Virus record (IMG/VR): IMGVR_UViG_3300036940_000176
Span: 1-62,668 of that record
DNA from: a virus
Reading direction: 5' to 3' (one strand)
DNA: 62,668 bases
Position 1 is the first letter of the stretch; every line of letters starts with the position of its first letter. The notes under the pieces were generated by a model. It was not told where the DNA came from. It did not search any database and saw only the letters and a list, made by a program, of their open reading frames with translations. Position numbers and translations under genes: made by a program. Shown piece by piece: positions 8,359-62,668 of this stretch.

Positions 8359-8506
8359 CTCATGTTAATTATACAATAAATTATATTATTTGTATATAAT
8401 AAAAAGCATCATCACATAATGTAACGATACTTTCTTTTAAAAATATGACATATTTCCTCCTTTTACCTCATTTACACTTGTACTCGGTGTAACGTGGGTA
8501 TAATTA

Positions 8507-8535
8507 ATTATATAATATTTGTCACTTAATGTCAA
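8507..8535 (-). promoter_or_regulatory. Consensus sigma-A type promoter of the tail operon
   Basis: Minus strand reads TTGACA (8535-8530), a 17-nt spacer, then TATAAT (8512-8507). CACGTTAC motif at 8496-8489 just downstream. Confidence 0.75.
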
Positions 8536-8570
8536 AAAAATGCAATAAGCACTACAAATTGTAGTGCTTA
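8534..8570 (-). terminator. Second (back-up) hairpin terminator candidate
   Basis: 10-bp perfect stem TAAGCACTAC/GTAGTGCTTA (8546-8570), followed on the minus strand by ttgca then T7. Confidence 0.4.
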
Positions 8571-8642
8571 TCTAGGAAATTAGAACAAAAAACAGAACGT
8601 GTGCACGCACATTTTTATTATACACTAAAAAAAATATAAAAC

Positions 8643-8688
8643 AAATAAAAAAGCCAAACCAACGGCTACGGGTTCGTTGATTTGGCTT
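8643..8688 (-). terminator. Strong intrinsic terminator ending the ncRNA unit
   Basis: 14-bp stem AAGCCAAAUCAACG/CGUUGGUUUGGCUU. It has one U-G wobble on the minus strand that would be an A-C mismatch on the plus strand. Followed by TTTTATTTG. Confidence 0.8.
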
Positions 8689-9063
8689 AGTGTGTTTCGC
8701 TTGTTTCATTCCCAAGAATGAGTGACAAGCCTTTATATATATTTTACATCAGAGTGTGAACTGCAAGTTTTCCATCTTGCAACATTTAATCACTATAACT
8801 GATGGGTTTAACAGTAAGAGGGCTGTCTCCAACCCTCTAAGGAAGGGGATGTGTGAATAAAAATTATTCACCATGCTATGTTTGTACTCGTTCTCCACAA
8901 GTACAGACGTAAGGGATAAGTTGCGACAATGTCGCTGGCACTGAATGAGTAGTTTATAGATACAGTACTTGTCGAGAGTTCGTATCACTCATTCAGCATC
9001 AGCGACACCCACTAATTAAAGTGGAATGTCTTTAACTATAGAAAGGAAGTGACACTCAATCAC
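8689..9063 (-). ncRNA. Candidate large structured ncRNA (about 420 nt including the terminator), class unknown
   Basis: Own promoter and terminator, with no SD-preceded ORF. Local GC is well above the flanks. Nested helices include CTGAATGAGT(8941-8950)/ACTCATTCAG(8986-8995), GTCGCTG(8931-8937)/CAGCGAC(9000-9006), AGAGGG/CCCTCT(8817-8838) and GTGAATAA/TTATTCAC(8853-8871). Confidence 0.6.
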
Positions 9064-9069
9064 AGTTAT

Positions 9070-9098
9070 ATTATATGACATTTATATAACTTTTGCAA
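9070..9098 (-). promoter_or_regulatory. Near-consensus promoter of the ncRNA unit
   Basis: Minus strand reads TTGCAA (9098-9093), a 17-nt spacer, then TATAAT (9075-9070). Starts 6 nt after the groEL stop. Confidence 0.65.
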
Positions 9099-9103
9099 TA
9101 ATT

Positions 9104-10813
9104 TTATTGTTTATTTTGTGAATTTAATATTGAACCATTTGTTCTAATTGTCATTATTGTGTTTGTCACCGCATGTTTTAGCGCATAAACGATTGAATTA
9201 GTTGCGTCTATAATACCCCTATCAATTAAATCAACAACTTCCCAATTTGAAACGTCAATTCCGTATTGATAACTTTGATATTCATCAAAATTATTAAAAA
9301 ATTCAAATGGTGTTTCTATGCCTGCATTTTCACAAATTTGCATAAATGGTTTAATTAAAACTTCCAACAAAACTTTTTTACCATATAAAAATGATTTATT
9401 AATTTTTTCTATATCTTCTAAGTTTTCTATTTCATCATCTAAATTCAAATTTTCTTTAAAGTAATAATATGCGGATTTAAGAGTGTTTCCACCGCCAGGT
9501 ATAATTCCACCTTCTTGTGCTGTTCTAACGGTTCTTAGGGCGTCATCTGTTTTTTCCATCAAATCTTGATATTCAATTTCTGTTGCTCCAAAAATTCTCA
9601 ACACAGCAACTCCGCCACTTAATTTAGAAATCCTTTTTCTAATTTCATCTTCTTTCATTTTTGATTTTGTAATATCTTTATTTCCCAATAATTCTTTCAA
9701 TAATTCAATTCTATCTTCTACTGATTTTCTGACTTTTTCATTGTTTAAACCTTTTAATATTGTCGCTTCAATTCTAACGGCAACTTCATCTAAATGTCCT
9801 AACAGTTTTTCAAAATTATCAATACCGTTTTTAACCAAAGGTTCAGTCAAAGTCATCGTCCCTAATGTAACACTCTCTATATCGCCTAAAATTTGCTCGC
9901 TGTCGGTATTTGTACCACCAGGTGATAATATAGCCTGGAAATCACCAATAAACTCAAAATACTTATCACTGCGCTTTGTAGATGCCATTAAATCAAGAAC
10001 ACTTTCAGAATATTCTTTAGCAATTATCAATAAAGAAATTTTCTCTTTATTCTCTTTATAGTGTTTTTTCGCTATCGTATGAAAACTATTTAAAATCGAA
10101 CTTGCATCTTGAGCGTGTATTAATTTATCTTTTAATATTAATACTTTAACATTTTTCATTTCAGAAAATTGTTTTTTTATGTCTTCTTTTTTTAATAATT
10201 GTGGAGATAACAAGCCATATTCTAAGACCATACCTTTAATAATTTCTAAATAACTTTCATTTTTATAACTGCGCATTCTTTGAATAATTCCGTGTTCTCC
10301 GATTGCATCAATTGCATCAACGATTAATCGTGAAAGATGTTCTTCTCTTGAAGCGATGTAACTAGCATTAAACAATTCTTCATTTGTTTCAACTGGTTTT
10401 GAAATTGAAAATAAGTAATCAATAACCTCTTTTACCATTTCTTTTAATCCGTTAGCAAAAGAAATTGGATTTAATTCGTGCATTTCAATTAAATTATAAC
10501 TTTTATCAACTAAATTAGTCATTAAATTACATGTTAAACTTGTACTATCACCAGCCATTCTTGCTGTTCTATCCATTGCGCTAATAACAAGTCTTGCTCC
10601 AATATTTTCTTTGTTGTCTTCTAGTTCGATTTGTCTAGCAATATTGATACCATCATTAATAATCAATGGTGAACCATCCATCATTTCAATCATTGCATAT
10701 CTTCCTAAAGCACCCATTGTTGGTGAAACTAAACTATCAACCTTTTTCATTCCTGAAATAAGATGTTCTAATGTTTCTTTTTTGTTCTGAACTATCATTT
10801 TATCTCTTTTCAT
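9104..10813 (-). CDS. groL: GroEL-family (Cpn60) chaperonin, divergent phage homologue (569 aa)
   Basis: Alignable blocks: IINDGINIARQIELEDNKENIGARLV vs GroEL [26 protein letters not shown], and GGVAVLRIFGATEIE...DDALRTVRTAQEGGIIPGGG vs GGVAVIKVGAATEVE...[26 protein letters not shown] is changed to GDSTSL. No GGM tail. Confidence 0.85.
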   Translation of the reverse strand: MKRDKMIVQNKKETLEHLISGMKKVDSLVSPTMGALGRYAMIEMMDGSPLIINDGINIARQIELEDNKENIGARLVISAMDRTARMAGDSTSLTCNLMTNLVDKSYNLIEMHELNPISFANGLKEMVKEVIDYLFSISKPVETNEELFNASYIASREEHLSRLIVDAIDAIGEHGIIQRMRSYKNESYLEIIKGMVLEYGLLSPQLLKKEDIKKQFSEMKNVKVLILKDKLIHAQDASSILNSFHTIAKKHYKENKEKISLLIIAKEYSESVLDLMASTKRSDKYFEFIGDFQAILSPGGTNTDSEQILGDIESVTLGTMTLTEPLVKNGIDNFEKLLGHLDEVAVRIEATILKGLNNEKVRKSVEDRIELLKELLGNKDITKSKMKEDEIRKRISKLSGGVAVLRIFGATEIEYQDLMEKTDDALRTVRTAQEGGIIPGGGNTLKSAYYYFKENLNLDDEIENLEDIEKINKSFLYGKKVLLEVLIKPFMQICENAGIETPFEFFNNFDEYQSYQYGIDVSNWEVVDLIDRGIIDATNSIVYALKHAVTNTIMTIRTNGSILNSQNKQ

Positions 10814-14800: not shown

Positions 14801-15494
14801 CCCATTCTATCTTCTTGTCTAAATTTTCTTTGTTGTTTTTTAAATCATCGCTAATTGACTTCACTATAGTTCCTTCAAAATCGCTAATAGGAAATTTCAT
14901 TTGATTATCCAAGTTTAAATCTTCAGCACCGATTTTAAATTCATCGATAGCGGATTGCATTTTAATTTTTTTTATGTGCATATAATGTTTTGCTTCACCG
15001 ATTGTTTCCACCATATAATAACCATTAACATCACCAATTATTTTTCTTTTAAATGTCGCTCCATTTTTTAATGTATATCCACGATTATTTATTTTTCTAA
15101 CAATTCCTCTAGTTTTTCTTTCACTAATGTTAAATTGCCTAGAAAGTTCTTCCATTGAAATCGCATTTGCTTTTCCTACATGATTATATTTCATTCTATT
15201 ATAAATTTCATAAACAATGGTAGGGCATTGTTTTATTGCGTGCGTTTTTTTAAAGTTAGAAAAGTCATACAACAGCGTTATATAAGTCCCTCTATTGTCT
15301 GATTTGCGTGCGATTTTTCCTTCGCTTTCCAGTTTTTCAATTGCTCTTCTGACCATAAACTTATCACAATCATATCCCCTTTTGTTTAAAACGTTAGAAA
15401 TCTTTTGAAATGACGCTCTAATTTCATTTGTCACCGTTTCTTTTAATAAATCAAATACAAGTGCTTTGAAACCATACCCTTCTAATTTATTCAT
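14793..15494 (-). CDS. Winged-helix/HTH DNA-binding protein (233 aa), possible regulator or initiator accessory
   Basis: Two wHTH-like segments (FMVRRAIEKLESEGKI; ISMEELSRQFNISERKTRGIVRKIN). Confidence 0.4.
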   Translation of the reverse strand: MNKLEGYGFKALVFDLLKETVTNEIRASFQKISNVLNKRGYDCDKFMVRRAIEKLESEGKIARKSDNRGTYITLLYDFSNFKKTHAIKQCPTIVYEIYNRMKYNHVGKANAISMEELSRQFNISERKTRGIVRKINNRGYTLKNGATFKRKIIGDVNGYYMVETIGEAKHYMHIKKIKMQSAIDEFKIGAEDLNLDNQMKFPISDFEGTIVKSISDDLKNNKENLDKKIEWDD

Positions 15495-21199: not shown

Positions 21200-21239
21200 C
21201 TAATTGTCACCTCCTTTATTTGATGACCTTTAAACATTT

Positions 21240-21575
21240 TCATAATAACCCACTTTCTTTAATTTTATCCAATTGCTCTTGAGTTAGTTCAATAGTTACT
21301 TTCTTTTTAAGTCTATTTTCAATAATTACTCCTTTACTATTTTCCCAATAAATCATATTACCTTGCTCATCATATTCTCGTTTTTCCCAATAACCATTGC
21401 TATTTTCCCCATAAATCAAATTACCTTTTTCATCATATTCAATTTTAGACCAATCTCCATCACTATTTTCATAATAAACCCTATTACCCTTTTCATCAAA
21501 AACTTTAAACCAATCATCTTTAATAACCAACTTATAACTACCTTTTAATTCTATTTGACCTTTGAATAATTTCAT
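21240..21575 (-). CDS. YD(Rhs-type)-repeat-like small protein, paralog 3 (111 aa)
   Basis: 21-aa repeats YxENSxGxWxKxEYDxxGNxI. N-terminus MKLFKGQIELKG is shared with the neighbours. Confidence 0.6.
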   Translation of the reverse strand: MKLFKGQIELKGSYKLVIKDDWFKVFDEKGNRVYYENSDGDWSKIEYDEKGNLIYGENSNGYWEKREYDEQGNMIYWENSKGVIIENRLKKKVTIELTQEQLDKIKESGLL

Positions 21576-22246
21576 AATAACCCACTTTCTTTAGTCTGGT
21601 GCGGTCTTTTATCAACAAATACTCCATCATTATTTTCCCAATAAACCTCATTCCCTTTTTTATCATATTCTCTTTTAATCCAATAACCATTACTATTTTC
21701 CCAATAAACCTCATTCCCTTTTTTATCATATTCTCTTTTAATCCAATAACCATTACTATTTTTCCAATAAACCTCATTCCCTTTTTTATCATATTCTCTT
21801 TTAATCCAATAACCATTACTATTTTCCCAATAAACCTCATTCCCTTTTTTATCATATTCTCTTTTACTCCAACATCCTTTGCTATTTTCATAATAAATCA
21901 TATTGCCTTTTTCATCATATTTATACTTATGCCAATCTCCATCACTATTTTCCCAATAAATCACATTACCTTTTTCATCATATTCTTTTTTAGACCAATA
22001 ACCATTACTATTTTTATAATAAATCATATTGCCTTTTTCATCATATTTATACTTATGCCAATCTCCATCACTATTTTCCCGATAAATCACATTACCTTTT
22101 TCATCATATTCAATTGTAGACCAATCTCCATCACTATTTTCATAATAAACCCTATTACCCTTTTCATCAAAAACTTTAAACCAATCATCTTCAACATCTA
22201 ACTTATAATTACCTTTTAATTCAATTTTACCTTTAAATAATTTCAT
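21572..22246 (-). CDS. YD(Rhs-type)-repeat-like protein, expanded paralog 2 (224 aa, about 9 repeats)
   Basis: Same repeat. Includes near-perfect 63-nt tandem copies. Confidence 0.6.
   Translation of the reverse strand: MKLFKGKIELKGNYKLDVEDDWFKVFDEKGNRVYYENSDGDWSTIEYDEKGNVIYRENSDGDWHKYKYDEKGNMIYYKNSNGYWSKKEYDEKGNVIYWENSDGDWHKYKYDEKGNMIYYENSKGCWSKREYDKKGNEVYWENSNGYWIKREYDKKGNEVYWKNSNGYWIKREYDKKGNEVYWENSNGYWIKREYDKKGNEVYWENNDGVFVDKRPHQTKESGLL
21600..22200. repeat. 63-nt (21-aa) tandem repeat array inside the 224-aa YD-like gene
   Basis: Units start at 21637, 21700, 21763 and 21826 and are almost identical. More diverged copies extend to about 22200. Confidence 0.85.
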
Positions 22247-22247
22247 T

Positions 22248-22583
22248 CTATTTAACCACCTTTATTTGATAACCTAATAGTTTCTCAATTTCAGCAATGG
22301 TTAATTCTTTGGCATTCGGTCTTTTGTCAATAATTACTCCATCACTATTTTCATAGTAAACCTCATTCTCTTGCTCATCATATTCTCTTTTATTCCAATA
22401 ACCATCACTATTTACCCAATAAATCCTATTACCTTGCTCATCAAATTTTCGTTTTTCCCAATAACCATTGCTATTTTCCCCATAAATCAAATTACCTTTT
22501 TCATCTAAAACTTCAAACCAATAATCTTTAATAACCAACTTATAACTACCTCTTAATTCAATTTTACCTTTAAACATTTTCAT
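22248..22583 (-). CDS. YD(Rhs-type)-repeat-like small protein, paralog 1 (111 aa)
   Basis: Same N-terminus and repeats. Confidence 0.6.
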   Translation of the reverse strand: MKMFKGKIELRGSYKLVIKDYWFEVLDEKGNLIYGENSNGYWEKRKFDEQGNRIYWVNSDGYWNKREYDEQENEVYYENSDGVIIDKRPNAKELTIAEIEKLLGYQIKVVK

Positions 22584-22589
22584 TATCTT

Positions 22590-30250: not shown

Positions 30251-31735
30251 TTAATATTTTGTTAGATATTCAGCAAAATCTTCTTTTGGAGTTTCGCTAA
30301 ATTTAAGACGATTTTTACAAACACACAAATAATTATTAAAATGTTTTGTTTTTTTAGTAATGTAATGAATTTCGCCACATTTTTCACAAACCGCTTTGTA
30401 TTTACTGACAACTGGATTAGCACTTTTGTGCGTTGCTTTCCCATCGCTTCCCAATTGTCTTGCAAGTCTACGCCACTCTTTTCCGTGTGGTTTGATTTCT
30501 CTATTCCGTGTTTTCTTTCCCAATAAAGCGTGTGCTACTTCGTGTGCTAATGTATCCAACATTTTTTCAACTGGATTGTATGCTAAAAATACAAGGCTTA
30601 TAGATATAATTTTTTTTACATAATATGCACGGCCATAACTTGATTTTGATTTATCAAACACTAAATCGTACTCTTTCAACTTCTTCGGATACATTTTTTT
30701 GTACTCTTCCCACTTGTTTTTAATGATTTCTTGTTCCAAAAGCCATTGTTTTTCACTTTTATGTTTAGTATCAGTTGTTTTCACGGTTGTATTTTCAGTT
30801 TGAGTGCCCTTAATTTCTTCTCTCTTGATTTTTTCTTCTTTTTTGGTATCAGACTTAGCCATAGAGTTTAAAATCAATTCTACGGCTTTTTCAGCCTTTG
30901 TAAATGCACTGACTAATTTTTGTGCACTCTCTTCTTCAAAGTACTTAATCCAAGAGTTAATGTATGCTTGTGAGTTATCAAAGTTTATATTATCGACACC
31001 TAGAAAAGCACTTGCTAGCATTGTTGCGCCACTTTCAGCGATTAATTCTTCATATGAATAAATTCTTGAACCAAAGGATGCCCCTTTAAGTCTATTTAAT
31101 CGTGATGTGTGCCCAGTGCTGTGGATGATTTCGTGTGCTTTGGTTTTTAAAAATACAACGTTGTTTTTAAAAGCACCTTGCTGTGGCAACGTGATGCTGT
31201 CACTCATTGGACTGTAAAACGCTCTATTTCCACCAAAGTTAAGTGTAATATTATATTTATTTAAGTAATTATTCATAATATTTTCAAGGTCTTTTTCTTT
31301 TTGATTTAACTCTTCAACAGTCAATGGTTCTTTTGGTTTATTAAACTTTGGTTCTAGGTCAGTGTCTTCGATGTGGAACACACGATAATATCTCAATAAA
31401 AATGATGTTCTTTCTTTTTCTTCTTCTTCACCATTCTCATTGATTTCAGTCGTTGTATATTTTCCGATTTTCCAATAAACAACAACTTCACTTTTAGACC
31501 CTTTTTTCAATTTTGCTTTTAATTTTTTGATTTGATTGAATGTTACGTATTCACCAGGAGCCAAAAGCATTTGATTTAAACCGTTATAATATTTTCCAGT
31601 AACATAACTAACGGCACCGACATTACTGTTCACATCAGTATCGATTAACCATTCTCTTTTCCAAACTAAATGCCCTTTGCTTAATTGGTTTAAAAGTCTT
31701 TCTTTCACAATTTCAAATACGTTTGTTTTACTCAT
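30251..31735 (-). CDS. ardC: ArdC-like antirestriction fusion: ssDNA-binding N-domain plus zincin metallopeptidase plus a second SprT-like Zn-protease/zinc ribbon (494 aa)
   Basis: N-domain TGKYYNGLNQMLL...YVTFNQIKKL...VVVYWK. First HExxH KAHEIIHSTGHTSRLNR. Second HExxH LAHEVAHALL...HGKEWRRLARQLG. C-terminal CxxC...CxC ribbon. ATG 31735 is 8 nt after GGAAAGAGAG. Confidence 0.7.
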   Translation of the reverse strand: MSKTNVFEIVKERLLNQLSKGHLVWKREWLIDTDVNSNVGAVSYVTGKYYNGLNQMLLAPGEYVTFNQIKKLKAKLKKGSKSEVVVYWKIGKYTTTEINENGEEEEKERTSFLLRYYRVFHIEDTDLEPKFNKPKEPLTVEELNQKEKDLENIMNNYLNKYNITLNFGGNRAFYSPMSDSITLPQQGAFKNNVVFLKTKAHEIIHSTGHTSRLNRLKGASFGSRIYSYEELIAESGATMLASAFLGVDNINFDNSQAYINSWIKYFEEESAQKLVSAFTKAEKAVELILNSMAKSDTKKEEKIKREEIKGTQTENTTVKTTDTKHKSEKQWLLEQEIIKNKWEEYKKMYPKKLKEYDLVFDKSKSSYGRAYYVKKIISISLVFLAYNPVEKMLDTLAHEVAHALLGKKTRNREIKPHGKEWRRLARQLGSDGKATHKSANPVVSKYKAVCEKCGEIHYITKKTKHFNNYLCVCKNRLKFSETPKEDFAEYLTKY

Positions 31736-31776
31736 AATTTTCACTCTCTTTCCGTTTTTCAGTCTTATAACGTGAC
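31726..31776 (-). promoter_or_regulatory. Copy A of a conserved 51-nt leader/start element
   Basis: 47 of 51 nt identical to 34819-34869. Spans GTCACGT..AAGAC..AAAAACGGAAAGAGAGTGAAAATTATGAGTAAAA. Confidence 0.6.
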
Positions 31777-34477: not shown

Positions 34478-34828
34478 CTACTCTTCGGATTTTTTCAAAA
34501 TAACAAGGTGACTTTCTTTATTTAAGCGCTCTAGCCACTCATTTAAACCGTCTTTATTTTCCCAGTAAGCGATAACTTGTTCACGATAAATATCGTTTGA
34601 CCCAGTGTAGACCTTGAATTGACCTTGATATTCTCTTAAGTGACCAACACAAGCCCACGATTGTCTCAAAGCGTGCGCTTTAATCGGTAAAACGTACCCA
34701 TTTTTAAATGTTACTCTTGCATTCAAGTCATATCCAACGCCTATAGTAACGCCATAAACCTTAACAATTGAACAGTCTACAGTCTCAACATTTTCTAAAA
34801 TCTTTTCTCTCAATTCTTTTTTACTCAT
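34478..34828 (-). CDS. Hypothetical protein, first ORF of the early-left operon (116 aa)
   Basis: Track ORF trimmed to ATG 34828 (MSKKEL), 8 nt after GGAAAGAGAG. Confidence 0.55.
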   Translation of the reverse strand: MSKKELREKILENVETVDCSIVKVYGVTIGVGYDLNARVTFKNGYVLPIKAHALRQSWACVGHLREYQGQFKVYTGSNDIYREQVIAYWENKDGLNEWLERLNKESHLVILKKSEE

Positions 34829-34869
34829 AATTTTCACTCTCTTTCCGTTTTTAGGTCTTTTTACGTGAC
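34819..34869 (-). promoter_or_regulatory. Copy B of the conserved 51-nt leader/start element
   Basis: See copy A (31726-31776). Confidence 0.6.
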
Positions 34870-34902
34870 CATAGTTTAGTTTTTTTTGAGTGCTTATTCA
34901 CT

Positions 34903-35394
34903 CTATAAAACGCACTTCAAAGAGTGCGCTCTAACAATGAATAAACGGCTTTTGATTGAAGCCTAAAATCTTGCCTACATTTCAGTAGCGAAGCAAGTCG
35001 CTTTTTAGGGTCAAAATTGCATCGTTTTCATCGCATCCCATCGCATTGTTCACGCTTGAACCGACCCAATAAACGTTGATATAAATGAGATTTTTAACCT
35101 TTCTATATTTTTGGTCAAATATACCTTGTTTAAAGTTATCAGTAAACGCCCTAACTACTAACGATTAAGACCCTTAACCACCTATTGAGCGGTAGCGAAC
35201 CGCTGTTCAGTGACCTATGCTTATTTGATACATAGTAACTTGATTGTGCTTTGGTTCAAGTTTGAAGACCAGTACATCAGATGTATTTAGATGCTATTCA
35301 ATTGTCAAATACCGCGTAGCCTCTTTTTGTCCTATTAGACCATAAGACTAGGCGACTACCGACCCAAGAACCGATTTGCGGTTGATTTGCTTGC
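34903..35394 (-). ncRNA. Candidate long structured leader or ncRNA (about 490 nt), GC-enriched and ORF-free
   Basis: Many short GC-rich hairpins: AGCGG/CCGCT 35189-35205, AGCGA/TCGCT 34987-35003, GGCTT/AAGCC 34946-34963, AACCG/CGGTT 35370-35384, CTATG/CATAG 35214-35235. The 10-mer TTGGGTCGGT occurs twice. Ends at a CGCACT/AGTGCG hairpin plus TTTTA (34903-34929). The only ORF (35298-35549) has no SD. Confidence 0.45.
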
Positions 35395-35400
35395 AACCCT

Positions 35401-35429
35401 ATAGTCTCACACTTTCTAACGATTGTCAA
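35401..35429 (-). promoter_or_regulatory. Candidate early-left promoter
   Basis: Minus strand reads TTGACA (35429-35424), a 17-nt spacer, then TGaGACTAT. The -35 is consensus and the -10 is weak but of the extended type. Confidence 0.35.
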
Positions 35430-35790
35430 ATGTTTTTTCAAATTTCTTTTTTTGGTGCGTTTGTTTGTTTCTTTGCTTATAAGATATTTTAAAGGCTGTT
35501 GACCAGTTAAAATGAATTGGTCAAATATAGGTTGGTTGGTTTGGTTCATTTGCGGATAAAATTATGGTGAATAATCCACATAAAATGGATGCAAAAACAA
35601 GTCGATTTTAGGCGCTTGCTTATTGATGGATTTTAGGCGCTGTTTAAATGGTTTATGGGTATATGGTAGAAAGACCCACCCCCCTATCGTAAAAACTGAA
35701 ATATAACGGATAAATAGGCGGTCAAGTGGGTACTTCGCTTCTCGTATATATTATTATTAGCACTCCCCCTATTTTTTAAAAATATCCAAC

Positions 35791-35819
35791 TTGACAAAGT
35801 GACACTTATGACATATAAT
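35791..35819 (+). promoter_or_regulatory. Consensus early-right promoter
   Basis: TTGACA (35791-35796), a 17-nt spacer, then TATAAT (35814-35819). Confidence 0.75.
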
Positions 35820-35891
35820 ATAACTATAAGCCCCCCTAACATAAGAGAAAGGAGAGAGATTAAATGAGTATATGGATAAGGAGGAATTATA

Positions 35892-57861: not shown

Positions 57862-57865
57862 GTTG

Positions 57866-57894
57866 TTGAAATAAACTATTAATTATTATATAAT
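57866..57894 (+). promoter_or_regulatory. Near-consensus promoter
   Basis: TTGAAA (57866-57871), a 17-nt spacer, then TATAAT (57889-57894). Confidence 0.6.
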
Positions 57895-57930
57895 TAAAAT
57901 ATAAGAGCATATAATAAGAAGGTGGTTTAT

Positions 57931-58188
57931 TTGAGTTATAAAAAAGAAGATATATTATATCATTTAGAAAAAATATCTGTTGACCCAAGTCATATTAACG
58001 ATATACAAGATATGGAAATGTTTAATTTAATATCTACTTCATTAGAAAATGGAGAGTTAGCAGATGTTCAAAAAAAAGAAAATACCAAACAAAAAAATGC
58101 TATGGCCCAAACAAAATATCAAGAACATTTTAAACAATTTGATGATAATACAAAAGTGCATAACAACCAATATAAAAATAAAAGGTAG
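57931..58188 (+). CDS. Hypothetical protein (85 aa, probable TTG start)
   Basis: Track ORF 57922-58188. TTG 57931 lies 5 nt after GAAGGTGG. Confidence 0.45.
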   Translation: MSYKKEDILYHLEKISVDPSHINDIQDMEMFNLISTSLENGELADVQKKENTKQKNAMAQTKYQEHFKQFDDNTKVHNNQYKNKR

Positions 58189-58196
58189 GTGAAATT

Positions 58197-59246
58197 ATGA
58201 TAAGAAATGATGAACTAGCAAGATTTGATGATGGTGACATAACACCTAACGAAGGCGACACAAGAGAAAGTGATGGATATATTTATTATAACGGAGAATG
58301 GATACCACCACAAGAATATCAAGATATAATGTCAAGAACTGATACAGAAGAAGGTAGACCTGATTGGGTTGAAAGTTTAATTGCTGGTGGTGGATTAAGT
58401 GGAACTCAAACAACACCAGGAGAAACTATAACCATTGAAGAATTTAAAAATATGATTGGTAATATGACAACTGAAAGAGGCGCAACTTTATCTCAAAAAG
58501 AAGTTATGAAATTGTTTGAAGAAAATTTTAATGTAGATTTAAATGAAATGATTGAAGTACCAGATAGTTCATCTATGTACGGTTATAGAGAAACTTATGC
58601 AAATCAAGATTTAAGAAAAGAATTTTCAGAAATATGGCAAGATTATTATTCAACAACTGAACCTTTGGTTGAAAGTGAACAGTTACTTACAGAAGAAGAT
58701 TACGAAAAGCAACAAGAAGAACAAGAATTACAAGAAGATTATAGTAAAAATTTATCTGAATATGGACTTGAAAGTTTTAAAGATGATACAACCGATACAA
58801 CTGATACAACTGATACAACTGTGACCGAAAGTGAAAGCATTTTTGAATTAGATGAAGGATATGCTAAAGAACAAGCGGAAATGTATACAACATTACGTGA
58901 ACAAGATATATTAAATCAAATATTACAAGGTCAAAAAGGTGCTGTTGTTGGTCAACTTGGATTAGAAGAAATGCAAGACAAATATGGCATAAGTGGCGGA
59001 TTAGCATTGTCTCAAGAAATGCAAAGACAAGCGCAAGTTTCATCTCAACTTCAACCTTTGCAATCAGAACTTTCTGGATTGCCTTACGAACAACAATTGT
59101 TGGAAGATGAAATTAAATCTACACAAGCCCAAAGACAAAGTAATGCGCAATTAAGTAATTTAGAATTACAAAAAATGCAACTTGAAATTCAAGGGTTATT
59201 AGACCAACAAGCATATATGGATTTGCTTACTGGTGGAGATGAATAA
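58197..59246 (+). CDS. Acidic, Q-rich virion-module protein (349 aa) with a TTDTTDTTDTT repeat
   Basis: Track ORF. 9-nt repeat at about 58789-58815. Confidence 0.5.
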   Translation: MIRNDELARFDDGDITPNEGDTRESDGYIYYNGEWIPPQEYQDIMSRTDTEEGRPDWVESLIAGGGLSGTQTTPGETITIEEFKNMIGNMTTERGATLSQKEVMKLFEENFNVDLNEMIEVPDSSSMYGYRETYANQDLRKEFSEIWQDYYSTTEPLVESEQLLTEEDYEKQQEEQELQEDYSKNLSEYGLESFKDDTTDTTDTTDTTVTESESIFELDEGYAKEQAEMYTTLREQDILNQILQGQKGAVVGQLGLEEMQDKYGISGGLALSQEMQRQAQVSSQLQPLQSELSGLPYEQQLLEDEIKSTQAQRQSNAQLSNLELQKMQLEIQGLLDQQAYMDLLTGGDE

Positions 59247-59248
59247 TA

Positions 59249-59989
59249 ATGAACATTTGTACTGGTAAAATTAATGGAGTCAAATGTAAATATTTTGATG
59301 AAGAATTTAAACAATGTGACAATTCAAATCGTTCACACAAAATTGCAAAAGATTTAAAATCTTGTAAATATTACAAACAATCAAATGGCGTTAAAGTTAA
59401 TGAAACACTAGAAATTGTACCATCCATAACTGATGATTTAATAAAAAGTATTAACGAAGATAGTGCGCAAGTTGAAACATTTCAAAACTTTTTATCATTA
59501 AAACAAGACGAACAAAAATTTGTATTTTATGTAATGGTTCACAATTTAGACCCACAAGATGCTGTTAAAAAAGTTTTTGAAATTGAAGATGATAAAGAGG
59601 AAATAAAAACAAGAAATAAAAAGTATTATTTACTTAATAAACCACAAGTAGTTAAAGCAATGAAAGAATTTGCTAATACAGTATTTCAAGATGTTTTAGA
59701 AATTCAAGGTCTTAAAATTGCAAAAAAATTAACAGAAGCAAGTGATGTTGCAGTTGGTAATATGATACAAGATTACATAGATAAAAAAACCGATGCAGAT
59801 GGTAATCCAATTGTAAGACACAGTGATATTTTAATGGCAAATAAAATTCACGCAGATACACAAGCAAAATATAAAAAACAATTAGATTTATCATCAAGTG
59901 GTGGTGTTATTACATTTGGTAATGGCCAGCAATTAATGGATATAATTGGAGAATTAAAAGAATTACCTGCTAAAGAAGTAGGAGAATAG
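59249..59989 (+). CDS. Terminase small subunit-like protein with an N-terminal Cys cluster (246 aa)
   Basis: LKQDEQKFVFYVMVHNLDPQDAVKKVF...LLNKPQVVKAMKEF resembles the TerS HTH region. Separated from terL. Confidence 0.4.
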   Translation: MNICTGKINGVKCKYFDEEFKQCDNSNRSHKIAKDLKSCKYYKQSNGVKVNETLEIVPSITDDLIKSINEDSAQVETFQNFLSLKQDEQKFVFYVMVHNLDPQDAVKKVFEIEDDKEEIKTRNKKYYLLNKPQVVKAMKEFANTVFQDVLEIQGLKIAKKLTEASDVAVGNMIQDYIDKKTDADGNPIVRHSDILMANKIHADTQAKYKKQLDLSSSGGVITFGNGQQLMDIIGELKELPAKEVGE

Positions 59990-59997
59990 GTGATAAT

Positions 59998-62668
59998 ATG
60001 GCTGTAAAAAGAATATCAGACAATGCACTTGTGGATTGGTTGACAAAAGAAAACAATCAAAGCAACATTAGATTTCGTGATATAAACCAAATGCAAGATA
60101 CTTTAAAAAAAGGTATTAATAAAAATTTTGTAGATATTTTTGGATTAAAGAATGGAAAAATAAATGCTGGAAATGCTTCAAAACTTGGTGGTGCAAGTTT
60201 ATATAAAACAACTGATGAAGATTATACAACAAACGAAATACCAAATACAGACACAGATATACTATCTTCTAAGGCTTTGCTAAATTATATTATCAATACA
60301 TATTATAATATAGATGATATTGACGGCTTTTTAGATAATTATTTATTGCTATCTGGTGGAATAATGACAGGTGATATTGATTTAAATAATAACAATGTTA
60401 TTAACATTGGTAAAATATCATTCGGCACAGCCAGTGTTTTTGAAAATCCTGGAGACACAAGATGGAATAGTGATTTATTATGTTTGGAAACTCTTGTAAG
60501 TGGAACAGGAAGTAATCAGGTTATTATTCAACACTCAAGAGAAAATCATAAACAACTTAAAAACGATACTGGTAGCAATCAACCAAATGGTAAAGTTGCT
60601 TATATTAGTGGTGCTCCAGGTGCAAGTTCTAATGCCCAATTCAAATTAGCAACAAATACTGATGATGATATTGCAATGAGAACAATAGGTTTATTAACCG
60701 AACCAATAGATAGTGCCCAAAAAGGTATTGTCGCAACAAATGGCGAAGTAAAAGATATTAGCACATCATTATTATCTGGTACAGCAGAAGTTGGAAAACG
60801 TGTTTATCTAGCAACAAATGGAAATATGACAATGACTAAACCAACAGGAAATATTGTATGTGTATGTTTAGGTGTCGTTACACAAACTGGTTCAAGTACT
60901 TTTAATGTATTAGTTACTGTTAATGCTTTTCCTAAATTAGAACAATTAAGTGGTGTAGAAGGCACATTTGAAACTGGTTCTATATTAGTTAAACAATCAG
61001 ACGGAACATATGCCCCTGTTATTTTTCAAGATGAGTTAGATAATTATCAATTGATAAGTGAAAAAGGAGAGGCAAATGGATATGCGCCTTTAAATAGTTC
61101 AACTAAAATTGACGCAATTTATTTACCTTCTTATGTTGATGATGTTATTGAATATAATACAAAGGCTGATTTACCTTTAACTGGTGAAAGTGGTAAATTA
61201 TATGTTGTGCTTGCAGATGAAACAAGCGATAACAATACAAGTACTTATCGTTGGGCAACAACAGTATATGTAAAAGTCACTGATACATTAAGCGCAAGTG
61301 AAGTTAAAATTCTATATGAAAGCAATTTAAATACAAACGCATTTACTGATGCTTATAAAAGCAAACTAGATGAAATAGATGATTTGTTTGACGCAAAAAT
61401 ATCTATTGATTTGAGTTATCCAAACAAAGTTACATCTGATGATGATGATAAAATTTTCATTACTGATAGTGGGAATTTACATGCACCAAGATATATTACT
61501 CGTAAACAATTTATTGATAGCATTATTATAGATGGTGATATTTTCAATGGTGCTACTGATTATTCTCCAGAGGGACTAGGCGCATATTCAAGCGCAGTCA
61601 GTACAATCCATACAGGTATTGCTGATACAAACGCCGACTTTTACGTAGATATTACAACGTTATCAAGCGGTGATGTTTATCGTGTGACAGTACCAACATT
61701 AACCGATAACACCCAAGTTGCAAGATTTAGCGGTGATGGTGCTTTAGCAAGTGGCGCTACGTATTATAATGTTAAACTTAATGATATGTTTGTCAAGGGT
61801 AGTGATATTGAGGGGCAAGATATTGAATTGAAATTTGATGGTAGCATTGTTGAATTAATTGAGTTTGTTGATGATACCGAAGTTTCTTATGTCGAGCGTA
61901 ATGAATTGTATAATTGGAAACGCAATCACAAAGTATTCCCAATTCAAGTAACAGCAGGCGCATTTGATTTTAGCGTAAACACAGGAAATCCAACTTGGTA
62001 TTTTGATGAAGTACCTGCCGAAATAGGCGCAAGTTATTCAACATCATTACGACCAACTTGTACATTGACTAAATCACAAATTGTATATTTAGTAGTTGAT
62101 AATTTTAGCGCTTCAAGTATTGAATTAAAAGATAATGGAACTGATGCTCGATATGTTGGAGATTTACAAGATTTACCAGCATTAACTTATCTTTTAGATT
62201 TATATAATTGCACAAACATAACAGGTTCACTTGCTGATTTACCAGCATTAACTTATTTTTTAGATTTATATAATTGTACAAATGTAACAGGTTCACTTGC
62301 TGATTTACCAGCATTAACTTATTATTTGAGTTTAACTAATTGCACAAACGTAACAGGTTCACTTGCTGATTTACCAGCATTAACTTATCTTTTAGATTTA
62401 TATAATTGCACAAACATAACAGGTTCACTTGCTGATTTACCAGCATTAACTTATCTTTTAGATTTAACTAATTGCACAAACGTAACAGGTTCACTTACTG
62501 ATTTACCAGCATTAACTTATTATTTAAGGTTAGTTAATTGCACAAACGTAACAGGTTCACTTGCTGATTTACCAGCATTAACTTATCTTTTAGATTTATA
62601 TAATTGCACAAACATAACAGGTTCACTTGCTGATTTACCAGCATTAACTTATTATTTAAGGTTAGTTA
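59998..62668 (+). CDS. Tail fibre / receptor-binding protein with a C-terminal leucine-rich-repeat array. The ORF runs off the window end and continues at 3-359.
   Basis: ATG 59998 after TAGGTGATAAT. No stop found in this frame when read codon by codon to 62668. Contains the phage-fibre motif GYAPLNSSTKIDAIYLPSYVDDV and about eight 24-aa LRR units. Absent from the ORF track because no stop occurs in the window. Confidence 0.85.
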   Translation, partial: MAVKRISDNALVDWLTKENNQSNIRFRDINQMQDTLKKGINKNFVDIFGLKNGKINAGNASKLGGASLYKTTDEDYTTNEIPNTDTDILSSKALLNYIINTYYNIDDIDGFLDNYLLLSGGIMTGDIDLNNNNVINIGKISFGTASVFENPGDTRWNSDLLCLETLVSGTGSNQVIIQHSRENHKQLKNDTGSNQPNGKVAYISGAPGASSNAQFKLATNTDDDIAMRTIGLLTEPIDSAQKGIVATNGEVKDISTSLLSGTAEVGKRVYLATNGNMTMTKPTGNIVCVCLGVVTQTGSSTFNVLVTVNAFPKLEQLSGVEGTFETGSILVKQSDGTYAPVIFQDELDNYQLISEKGEANGYAPLNSSTKIDAIYLPSYVDDVIEYNTKADLPLTGESGKLYVVLADETSDNNTSTYRWATTVYVKVTDTLSASEVKILYESNLNTNAFTDAYKSKLDEIDDLFDAKISIDLSYPNKVTSDDDDKIFITDSGNLHAPRYITRKQFIDSIIIDGDIFNGATDYSPEGLGAYSSAVSTIHTGIADTNADFYVDITTLSSGDVYRVTVPTLTDNTQVARFSGDGALASGATYYNVKLNDMFVKGSDIEGQDIELKFDGSIVELIEFVDDTEVSYVERNELYNWKRNHKVFPIQVTAGAFDFSVNTGNPTWYFDEVPAEIGASYSTSLRPTCTLTKSQIVYLVVDNFSASSIELKDNGTDARYVGDLQDLPALTYLLDLYNCTNITGSLADLPALTYFLDLYNCTNVTGSLADLPALTYYLSLTNCTNVTGSLADLPALTYLLDLYNCTNITGSLADLPALTYLLDLTNCTNVTGSLTDLPALTYYLRLVNCTNVTGSLADLPALTYLLDLYNCTNITGSLADLPALTYYLRLV
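62161..62668 (+). repeat. 72-nt (24-aa) tandem repeat array encoding LRR units. It continues at 1-143 after the junction.
   Basis: Units DLPALTY(L/Y/F)L(D/S/R)L(Y/T/V)NCTN(I/V)TGSL(A/T). Neighbouring copies are more than 90 percent identical. Confidence 0.9.

Follow-up and report, generated by a model that had tools for sequence, protein, structure and literature searches.

What is encoded in the GC-rich stretch that directly follows the groEL gene in the virus record IMGVR_UViG_3300036940_000176? The DNA analysed here, called the window below, is the whole 62,668-nt contig, and the stretch in question (8643-9098, minus strand) is called the element. A sequence-only reading had proposed a self-contained, structured non-coding RNA of an unknown class at this position, possibly a large ornate RNA such as GOLLD or ROOL, and possibly linked to the chaperonin operon. 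Our comparative alignment shows that a core of about 90 nt within the element is conserved in both sequence and structure in five unrelated or distantly related genetic elements, and that three of its helices, H3, H5 and H6, are backed by compensatory changes. We give about an even chance to the interpretation that these sequences constitute a new family of trans-acting small RNAs (sRNAs) carried by phages and episomes, with C-rich seeds like those of RsaE/RoxS, and that the window carries a long form of it.

The transcription unit behind groEL

The promoter proposed for the minus strand, TTGCAA-17-TATAAT, is present at 9098..9070 (-). The promoter scan assigns it to the sigma-70 type, with 10 of 12 positions matching the consensus; it begins 5 nt past the groEL stop codon TAA (9106-9104) and predicts a start site at ~9063. 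The block that spans its -10 hexamer and start, ATGNCATATAATATAACT, has a single other mismatch-free occurrence, in the consensus promoter 35791-35825 at the head of the rightward operon, and the predicted promoter gains support from this match. The intrinsic terminator (8643..8688, minus strand) was also found as described. It consists of a 14-bp stem (8688-8651) with one U.G pair and a 10-nt loop, followed by a U-run to 8643 that exists on the minus strand only, and it is the first terminator after groEL. The whole predicted transcript, 8643..9063 on the minus strand, is therefore ~421 nt long.

The base composition of this unit deviates from that of its surroundings. The G+C counts of the sequence-only reading, 28 in 8881-8940 and 11 in 9101-9160, were reproduced, and the GC content is 39.4% for the element versus 28.6% for the whole 62.7-kb window. 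The minimum free energy (MFE) of the element on the minus strand is -134.3 kcal/mol, compared with -93.2 +/- 5.8 kcal/mol for dinucleotide shuffles (z = -7.1). When the genome was scanned in 445 overlapping segments of 420 nt, the six most extreme folds all overlapped the element and the next unrelated one had z = -2.9; the element is the strongest folding outlier of the 62.7-kb genome. The nested long helix that had been recognized by eye, GTCGCTG..CTGAATGAGT against ACTCATTCAG..CAGCGAC around GATAC/GTATC, corresponds to H2 of the MFE fold, with 30 pairs, and the fold predicts nine hairpins in total where at least six local ones had been claimed.

The plus strand folds about equally well (z = -6.6), and a strand call from G.U asymmetry was uninformative, with 10 versus 11 G.U pairs between the strands. 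Since neither the folding energy nor the G.U counts separate the strands, we assigned the strand from the promoter, the terminator and the homologues described below.

The only ORF of note, ORF79 (8749-8988), has a GTG start and, as had been observed, no Shine-Dalgarno (SD) sequence. Its G+C fraction at third codon positions is 0.525, compared with 0.168 in real genes, and its codon log-odds is -0.96 per codon, whereas in-frame 80-codon segments of real genes never fall below +0.05. An exhaustive HMMER search of 1.84 billion protein representatives yielded no true homologue of ORF79, and no family match was found in Pfam or PHROG. Two protein matches were rejected as translated tandem-repeat DNA, because their scores were summed over 6-13 copies and the single units reached only 10.8 and 14.8 bits. 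In addition, no gene was called here in any of four assemblies of this phage that are independent of each other (L003, L004, L019 and L020). ORF79 is not protein-coding. A second candidate, a 47-aa ORF at 8572-8715 considered as a type I toxin, was also discarded, as the frame extends across the terminator and owes its hydrophobic stretch to translated U-rich sequence.

Searches for known RNA classes were equally negative. The covariance models of Rfam 15, including GOLLD, ROOL, OLE, raiA, HEARO, 6S, RNase P, group I/II introns and T-box, gave no match at gathering thresholds across the whole window, and a permissive scan of 8480-9120 returned sub-threshold noise only, the best being U5 with 25.4 bits versus the required 40. 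ARAGORN found no transfer RNA or transfer-messenger RNA gene in the window. With respect to Rfam 15, the assignment to an unknown RNA class is thus borne out. There are no further copies or repeats of the element within its own genome, including the GC-rich 34.8-35.8 kb. Taken together, the dedicated promoter and terminator, the fold and the lack of a credible ORF support the view of a self-contained, structured RNA gene, and we conclude from these sequence features that positions 9063-8643 (-) are a non-coding RNA gene with a predicted transcript.

A conserved core in five genetic elements

Homologues were found in four other genetic elements, designated L017, L022, L030 and L050, so that the family has five members with the window. 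L017, a distant relative, was reached through a protein that is a 46% relative of the 1017-aa protein of the window. It keeps the order of 141-aa gene, adaptor-like gene and large gene. At the syntenic site upstream of the 141-aa gene lies a diverged RNA, ~125 nt long, behind a promoter of its own, TTGCAA-16-TG-TATAAT. The later search patterns were built from the blocks conserved between the window and L017. Two independent patterns matched L022, an 81.8-kb IMG/VR contig of an unrelated phage, and two other patterns matched L030, a 40.5-kb IMG/VR contig of another unrelated phage, which was also detected by nhmmer (E = 5.6e-8). L050 is CP017949.1, a 93-kb circular 'plasmid' of the Tenericutes bacterium MO-XQ, and was found by permissive blastn with the 95-nt core (E = 1e-24); its copy lies at ~14989-15078. 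MO-XQ, which is related to the Mollicutes, was isolated from subseafloor sediment and is in culture (PMC6381156). With a covariance model from which it had been left out, L050 reaches 87.3 bits; the window scores 73.4 bits against model R1, in whose seed alignment the window itself is included.

Other searches added no member. The whole region had no DNA similarity to GenBank phages and plasmids, nor did the 95-nt core to GenBank phages. An exact 29-mer and a two-block pattern had no match in IMG/VR. The two-block pattern matched six GTDB genomes (L005-L010), all by chance, and six chance matches (L011-L016) were obtained in JGI metagenomes with an 18-mer, a pattern that contained H6 stem bases specific to the window. 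The matches of the later pattern scans (L023-L029, L031-L048 and L049) were likewise rejected as chance, and the last scan brought no new member. In the literature, the linker sequences occur in unrelated primers only.

In all five members the core has the same order: hairpin H3, linker 1 (AUCCCUUACAUAG; (A)CUUAUCCCUUACAUAG(C)), hairpin H5, linker 2 (CCCCUUCCUU(A)) and hairpin H6 with a GAGA loop. The core of the window spans 8936-8817, with every part in order on the strand of the promoter and terminator, and is interrupted by one 29-nt insertion (H4). We aligned the core in 92 columns and five rows; the register was set by hand, the rows were verified as faithful subsequences, and non-homologous insertions were masked with N. 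Of the pair cells, 97.5% are canonical, as opposed to 30-46% when the partners are slid by 1-3 columns. Changes on both sides of a pair are found in 14 of 26 pairs, namely 8 of 9 in H6, 6 of 11 in H5 (including L050) and none in H3. None of 500 shuffles matched the observed value on any measure, and RNAalifold independently predicted the same three helices. The sequence-only reading had proposed to discriminate between compensatory base changes and codon-like conservation in homologues, and it is the compensatory changes that are seen.

Conservation of the sequence is concentrated in the parts that are predicted to be unpaired. All 10 columns of linker 2, 15 of the 18 of linker 1 and all 4 of the GAGA loop are invariant, compared with only 2 of the 18 of the H6 stem. 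The probability of being unpaired, P(unpaired), is 0.85-0.99 for the linkers in four members. Both linkers resemble a single motif, YCCCUUNCNUAG, as if it had been duplicated, and a hairpin comes after each. L030 and L050 have 89.7% identity in the RNA, compared with 66-70% in the flanking DNA and 43-58% in the protein sequences of the recombinases.

The members come in two formats. L030, L050 and L017 are stand-alone units of 90-125 nt in which H6 and a U-run form the terminator, which was called as such in L030 and L050. In the window and L022, the core lies inside predicted transcripts of ~420 and ~520 nt (z = -7.1 and -5.4, respectively), where H6 lacks a U-run and the terminator is distal. 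These long forms share a 5' architecture, GACAUU-H1-H2 with an H2 of 25-30 bp, and the 5' domain of H1 and H2 is common to these two members only; their 3' domains have no similarity. A sigma-70-like promoter is found upstream of the core in all five members.

The neighbourhoods differ from member to member. In L030 and L050 the RNA is immediately preceded by a tandem pair of large serine recombinases, an HTH repressor-like gene is close by, and no co-oriented gene lies downstream of the RNA; a trans-acting role is therefore favoured. In L022 the RNA lies between a gene of the Phage_VG64 family and a small ORF, close to an SSB gene, and in L017 it follows an HNH-like ORF. This ORF (L017 1-496) has by eye the look of an HNH-type homing endonuclease (…NHKNGIKTDNRVENLEWIS…), with a run of N interrupting it in the scaffold, and may be read as a further indication that the site is prone to mobile insertions. 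The block of repressor-like gene, two tandem large serine recombinases and sRNA is shared between L030 and L050 (CP017949.1 8989-21078), the proteins being 42-63% identical. Judged from this shared block, the MO-XQ 'plasmid' may be an episomal prophage or a phage-plasmid. L050 also has a ClpB gene and an IS30 transposase beside its sRNA.

A functional tie to the chaperonin operon, which the sequence-only reading had considered, was not upheld. The phage lineage is nearly an orphan: the GroEL of the window is less than 30% identical to any GenBank phage GroEL, and among 5.8 billion proteins there are only two closer relatives, with 60% and 45% identity (L001 and L002). No groEL relative was found in IMG/VR, and the neighbouring 535-aa protein has no homologues at all; identical copies of the phage are present in several JGI and Logan samples. 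In L001 and L002, groEL is trailed directly by its own terminator and a promoter and then by genes equivalent to those at 57949-61368 of the window, which lie on the other strand there. The window groEL has no terminator of its own. The element is absent from the site after groEL in both relatives, and none of L001, L002 or L018 contains a copy of the sRNA core. From these comparisons, the element is placed at a synteny breakpoint, where it takes the place of the groEL terminator. Because groEL lacks a terminator, read-through of groESL transcripts into the element is also expected, in addition to transcription from its own promoter.

The gene order relative to L001 and L002 fits one large inversion, with breakpoints at the 3' end of groEL (~9100) and just upstream of gene 57949 (~57900). 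The promoters at 8535-8507 and 57863-57897 are alike, with 77% identity over 35 nt in inverted orientation.

What was found for this RNA gene is what characterizes phage 'morons': its own promoter and terminator, a deviant base composition, presence or absence among relatives, and a different neighbourhood in each member. With the synteny breakpoint in the window and the position beside integrases in temperate elements, we infer mobile behaviour, like that of a moron, with no tie to the chaperonin. DicF and IpeX are examples of such sRNAs in phages and prophages. They resemble the element in being promoter-to-terminator units of divergent composition that sit between phage genes or beside an integrase and are absent from the same site in relatives. 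However, DicF and IpeX are enterobacterial and Hfq-dependent, whereas the present family belongs to low-GC phages and episomes whose hosts are Mollicutes-related or Firmicute-like, and is found both in temperate elements and in elements with no integrase in the DNA examined.

Mode of action and alternative explanations

Stems that are free to vary, frozen single-stranded C/U-rich tracts, a duplicated motif and a terminator hairpin are, by analogy, the pattern of trans-acting sRNAs in low-GC Gram-positive bacteria. In the mechanism that we propose, the exposed linkers (CCCCUUCCUU and UCCCUUAC) would pair in trans with G-rich sites of mRNAs, typically SD sequences (AAGGAGG/AAGGGG). The pairing would block ribosome binding and/or create RNase III substrates, as with RsaE/RoxS and the UCCC-motif sRNAs of Firmicutes. 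In the long forms, the core would probably be released from the longer transcript or be active within it, and RNase III could plausibly enter at H2, the helix of 25-30 bp immediately 5' of the core. The predicted pairing energies of the two linkers are -7.3/-7.7 kcal/mol with ribosome-binding regions versus -5.9/-5.5 kcal/mol with intragenic sequence, and the SD sequences of the MO-XQ episome are of the AGGAGG type. These points agree with the model, as does the anti-SD-like heptamer of the window RNA described below. Since no specific target was found in any phage locus, a host transcript is a likelier target than a phage one.

In RsaE/RoxS, a C-rich motif of ~10 nt is repeated, with one of the two copies unpaired between hairpins; the motifs bind SD or G-rich sites, and the resulting duplexes are cut by RNase III (PMC6158497, PMC5419742). 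The core is like RsaE/RoxS (RF01820) of the Bacillales in its length of ~100 nt, in its hairpins split by unpaired C-rich tracts, and in the duplicated C-rich motif (CCCCU...) whose second copy directly precedes the terminator hairpin. The second motif of the core opens with AUCCCCUU, the same as in RsaE. Nevertheless, the core is borne by phages and episomes rather than chromosomes, its motif runs on as UCCUUAG / UACAUAG and not as UUGUUU, the terminator loop is an invariant GAGA, and long forms of 420-520 nt exist besides the short ones. The RF01820 model gave 14.1 bits (E = 3) for L030, compared with a gathering threshold of 79, and did not list the window, L017 or L050 at E <= 10. The RNA can thus be likened to RsaE/RoxS in its presumed mode of action, but it is not a member of that family.

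A broader parallel is provided by the UCCC-motif sRNAs of S. aureus (RNAIII, RsaA/G/H and others), in which unpaired UCCC/CCCC tracts serve as anti-SD seeds (PMC6158497). The C-rich seeds of RNAIII are located in hairpin loops, whereas those of the core lie in linkers between hairpins, and the two have no sequence or covariance-model similarity. RNAIII is itself a long (~500 nt), multi-hairpin RNA.

Several points weigh against a seed-pairing sRNA. No target was found in the phage loci of the members, where the best duplex with a phage ribosome-binding site has ~-13 kcal/mol and no site recurs. The linkers are less accessible in L022, with P(unpaired) of 0.44-0.66. Judged from their sequence, invariant single-stranded tracts of 10-13 nt would fit a protein- or ribosome-binding site equally well. 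The 5' and 3' domains specific to the window, ~300 nt in all and very stable, are not explained by simple seed pairing, and RNase III processing of H2 is pure conjecture. The comparison itself comprises only five sequences, of which L030 and L050 are close relatives, and it depends on a register set by hand with the non-homologous parts masked. The H5 change of L050 may be a single replacement, so that the independent covariation events are fewer than the cell counts suggest.

The invariance of the single-stranded tracts leads to the strongest alternative, which we nevertheless consider unlikely: a decoy or sponge that acts without mRNA pairing, either because the modules of YCCCUUNCNUAG and hairpin bind a dimeric RNA-binding protein of phage or host or because they mimic the pyrimidine-rich 16S 3' tail and titrate whatever recognizes that tail. 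The apparent copying of one motif with a hairpin after each copy is what such a decoy would have, invariant tracts beside an invariant GAGA loop fit protein recognition as well as seed pairing, and the lack of an mRNA target in the phage loci is also in its favour. Moreover, the tract GUCACUUCCUUUCUA of the window matches a Firmicute-type 16S 3' tail at 13 of 16 positions, although this tract occurs in the window only. No co-conserved gene for a candidate binding protein adjoins the RNA, the neighbours being different in every member. A sponge of the CsrA type, as CsrB or RsmZ, was rejected because GGA is not conserved across the family: the window has four GGA, all in hairpin loops, L017 has one, and L030 and L050 have none.

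It is quite improbable that the 420 nt act in cis, as a structured 3' untranslated, terminator or processing region of the groES-groEL operon that protects the 3' end of the mRNA or separates it from the late operon, with the core as a passenger. The groESL transcripts of the window must indeed cross the element to reach the terminator at 8688-8643, whereas those of L001 and L002 terminate at once, and H2 resembles the RNase III sites between phage operons. However, the element is served by its own promoter, which belongs to one class with the strong promoter at 35791; the core exists in four other elements that have no groEL nearby, also as a stand-alone promoter-to-terminator unit; and selection acts on unpaired linkers, which a stability element would not need.

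A very small chance, slightly below that of a role in cis, is left to the large ornate RNA that had been suggested at first, in which function would reside in the whole long form of 420-520 nt, folded into a complex tertiary structure, with the short forms as degenerate versions. Like GOLLD and ROOL, the element is a highly structured, ORF-free and GC-enriched part of a phage genome; the two long forms stand out strongly by their folding, they share GACAUU-H1-H2, and a GNRA loop is conserved. On the other hand, no Rfam model, GOLLD, ROOL, OLE, raiA or HEARO included, matches it. The part conserved across the family is only ~90 nt long, the extra domains are not kept across members, and the 3' domains of the window and L022 are dissimilar. 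The helices are long and perfect, whereas ornate RNAs typically have short irregular helices and conserved junctions. Finally, three of the five members are sRNAs of 90-125 nt with their own promoter and terminator, and these are the most conserved copies. GC-rich, highly folded intergenic DNA of a phage therefore need not mean a giant ornate RNA.

There is little to recommend a site that acts as DNA, such as attP or another recombination site, or a palindromic origin or packaging signal. The RNA adjoins two large serine recombinases in L030 and L050, it sits at a synteny or inversion breakpoint in the window, and both strands fold equally well. Against this, pairing of the RNA type is maintained by the compensatory changes, and some of the pairs in H6 are G.U, which the opposite strand could not form. 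Every copy lies between a promoter and a terminator whose U-run works in one direction only. No recombinase is near three of the members, the element is neither repeated nor copied elsewhere in the genome, and att sites of serine integrases are ~50 bp long and need no conserved module of 90 nt.

Hardly any credence is due to a small-protein gene (ORF79 or the 41-aa or 47-aa ORFs) or a cis leader or riboswitch for the downstream 141-aa gene, since the 79-codon ORF, though it exists upstream of the late operon, has non-coding codon usage, no SD and no homologues and is not kept in the 90-125-nt members, two terminators and a consensus promoter (8535-8507) stand between the element and the 141-aa gene, and L030 and L050 have no co-oriented gene in that place.

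Returning to a trans-acting sRNA, we regard the family as new and the kind of RNA as known, namely a phage-borne regulatory sRNA by its inferred function; the coexistence of short and long formats makes it modestly unusual. It adds a family supported by covariation to the short list of phage regulatory RNAs outside enterobacteria. As the same ~90-nt module travels between unrelated phages and the episome of the cultured, poorly studied MO-XQ, an experimental entry point is available, and the invariant C/U-rich linkers yield a testable prediction, SD-directed antisense regulation. Short stand-alone and long embedded forms side by side represent a natural experiment on how an sRNA gene is packaged and processed. 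A bolder scenario, which seems to us possible but rather improbable, is that phages and episomes of Mollicutes-related or low-GC sediment bacteria carry a portable mimic of a RoxS/RsaE-type riboregulator of the host, or of the ribosomal anti-SD tail, either as a 90-nt sRNA or as a 420-520-nt precursor cut by RNase III at the 25-30-bp helix. Temperate and apparently lytic elements alike would then reprogram host translation or central metabolism during lysogeny and infection.

Features of the long form and other observations

All features of the long form lie on the minus strand and are given here from its predicted start at 9063 to its end at 8643. The first region (9043..9063) is specific to the window: hairpin H0 (9063-9049) and, behind it, CUUCCUU (9049-9043), a tract of anti-SD-like sequence. 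Only two copies of the heptamer C[CT]TCCTT exist in the sense orientation across 53 kb of gene blocks, both within the RNA of the window. Hairpin H1 (CCACU/AGUGG, 9009..9024) is preceded by GACAUU, and its counterpart in L022, GACAUU with CCAAUC/GAUUGG, has the same relative place. The first 15 nt of the window RNA (GUGAUUGAGUGUCAC, 9049-9062) resemble L022 4265-4280, the 3' arm of H1 with the start of H2 (UUGAUUGGGUGUCAC), and also UUAGUGGGUGUCGC at 9016-9003 of the window itself, which hints at a partial internal duplication of the H1/H2 junction.

The long helix H2 (8929..9008), 30 bp with small interruptions, is the candidate RNase III site. In L022 it corresponds to a continuous 25-bp helix at the same place, whose nine basal pairs are identical save for one double change from G-C to A-U. 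Core hairpin H3 (GCGAC-AUU-GUCGC, 8922..8936), also present in L030, L050 and L022, overlaps the base of H2 with its 5' arm, so that H2 and H3 are alternative pairings. Linker 1, the putative seed 1, is ACUUAUCCCUUAC at 8909..8921 (P(unpaired) 0.85). It is parted from AUAGC by the 29-nt insertion H4 (8880..8908), a stem-loop at 8905-8883 with a GGAGA loop, which is not found in the other four members. AUAGC and core hairpin H5 (AUGGUGAAUAA-UUU-UUAUUCAC-A-CAU) occupy 8849..8879, followed by linker 2, the putative seed 2, at 8839..8848 (P(unpaired) 0.93). Core hairpin H6 (AGAGGGUUG-GAGA-CAGCCCUCU, 8817..8838), whose cells are 100% paired, has no U-run after its stem in the window. The remaining 3' domain (8699..8816) is predicted to fold into H7 (8783-8760, loop AUGGAAAA) and H8 (8730-8699, loop UUGG). 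No homologue of the ~170-nt 3' domain with H7 and H8 was found, and it has no similarity to that of L022.

Downstream of the unit, the consensus promoter TTGACA-17-TATAAT (8535-8507) is followed by a mini-ORF of four codons with a perfect SD at 8437-8451 (-), AAAGGAGGAAAT-ATG TCA TAT TTT TAA, encoding MSYF* upstream of the 141-aa gene. L017 has an equivalent at ~741-755, with TTGACA-17-TATTAT and GGAGG..ATG AAT TAT AAA TGA, encoding MNYK*. A possible role for this mini-ORF is that of a conserved leader peptide or an attenuator of the late operon.

Elsewhere in the genome, a tandem array of 66-nt units is present at both ends of the contig (21-245 and 62104-62658), with at least nine copies that are 72-96% identical. 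Because both ends share this array, the contig probably represents a complete genome assembled as a circle; for the array itself, iterons, an origin, a packaging region and a repetitive coding segment are all conceivable. A second stretch that is free of ORFs and enriched in GC (34840-35790, ~950 nt, GC ~0.37) lies in the divergent control region, where the leftward and rightward gene blocks meet. Its structure is moderate (z ~-2.9), and it gave neither an Rfam match at E <= 1 nor a consensus terminator or a copy of the sRNA core.

The region 21311-22586 contains seven tandem repeats of 63 nt inside the ORF 21572-22246, three paralogous 268-nt segments (at 21311, 21982 and 22319) and repeated gene-start regions at 21224, 21556 and 22564. 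By its sequence it looks like a small family of duplicated genes, one member of which is internally repetitive. A 51-nt direct repeat with 92% identity (31726-31776 and 34819-34869) marks the start regions of two minus-strand genes 3.1 kb apart. In the 497-aa protein encoded at 30251-31744, an ArdC N-terminal domain is joined with a PolyVal-type zincin metallopeptidase domain and an SprT-like domain; the protein is a candidate anti-restriction or DNA-protein crosslink protease fusion.

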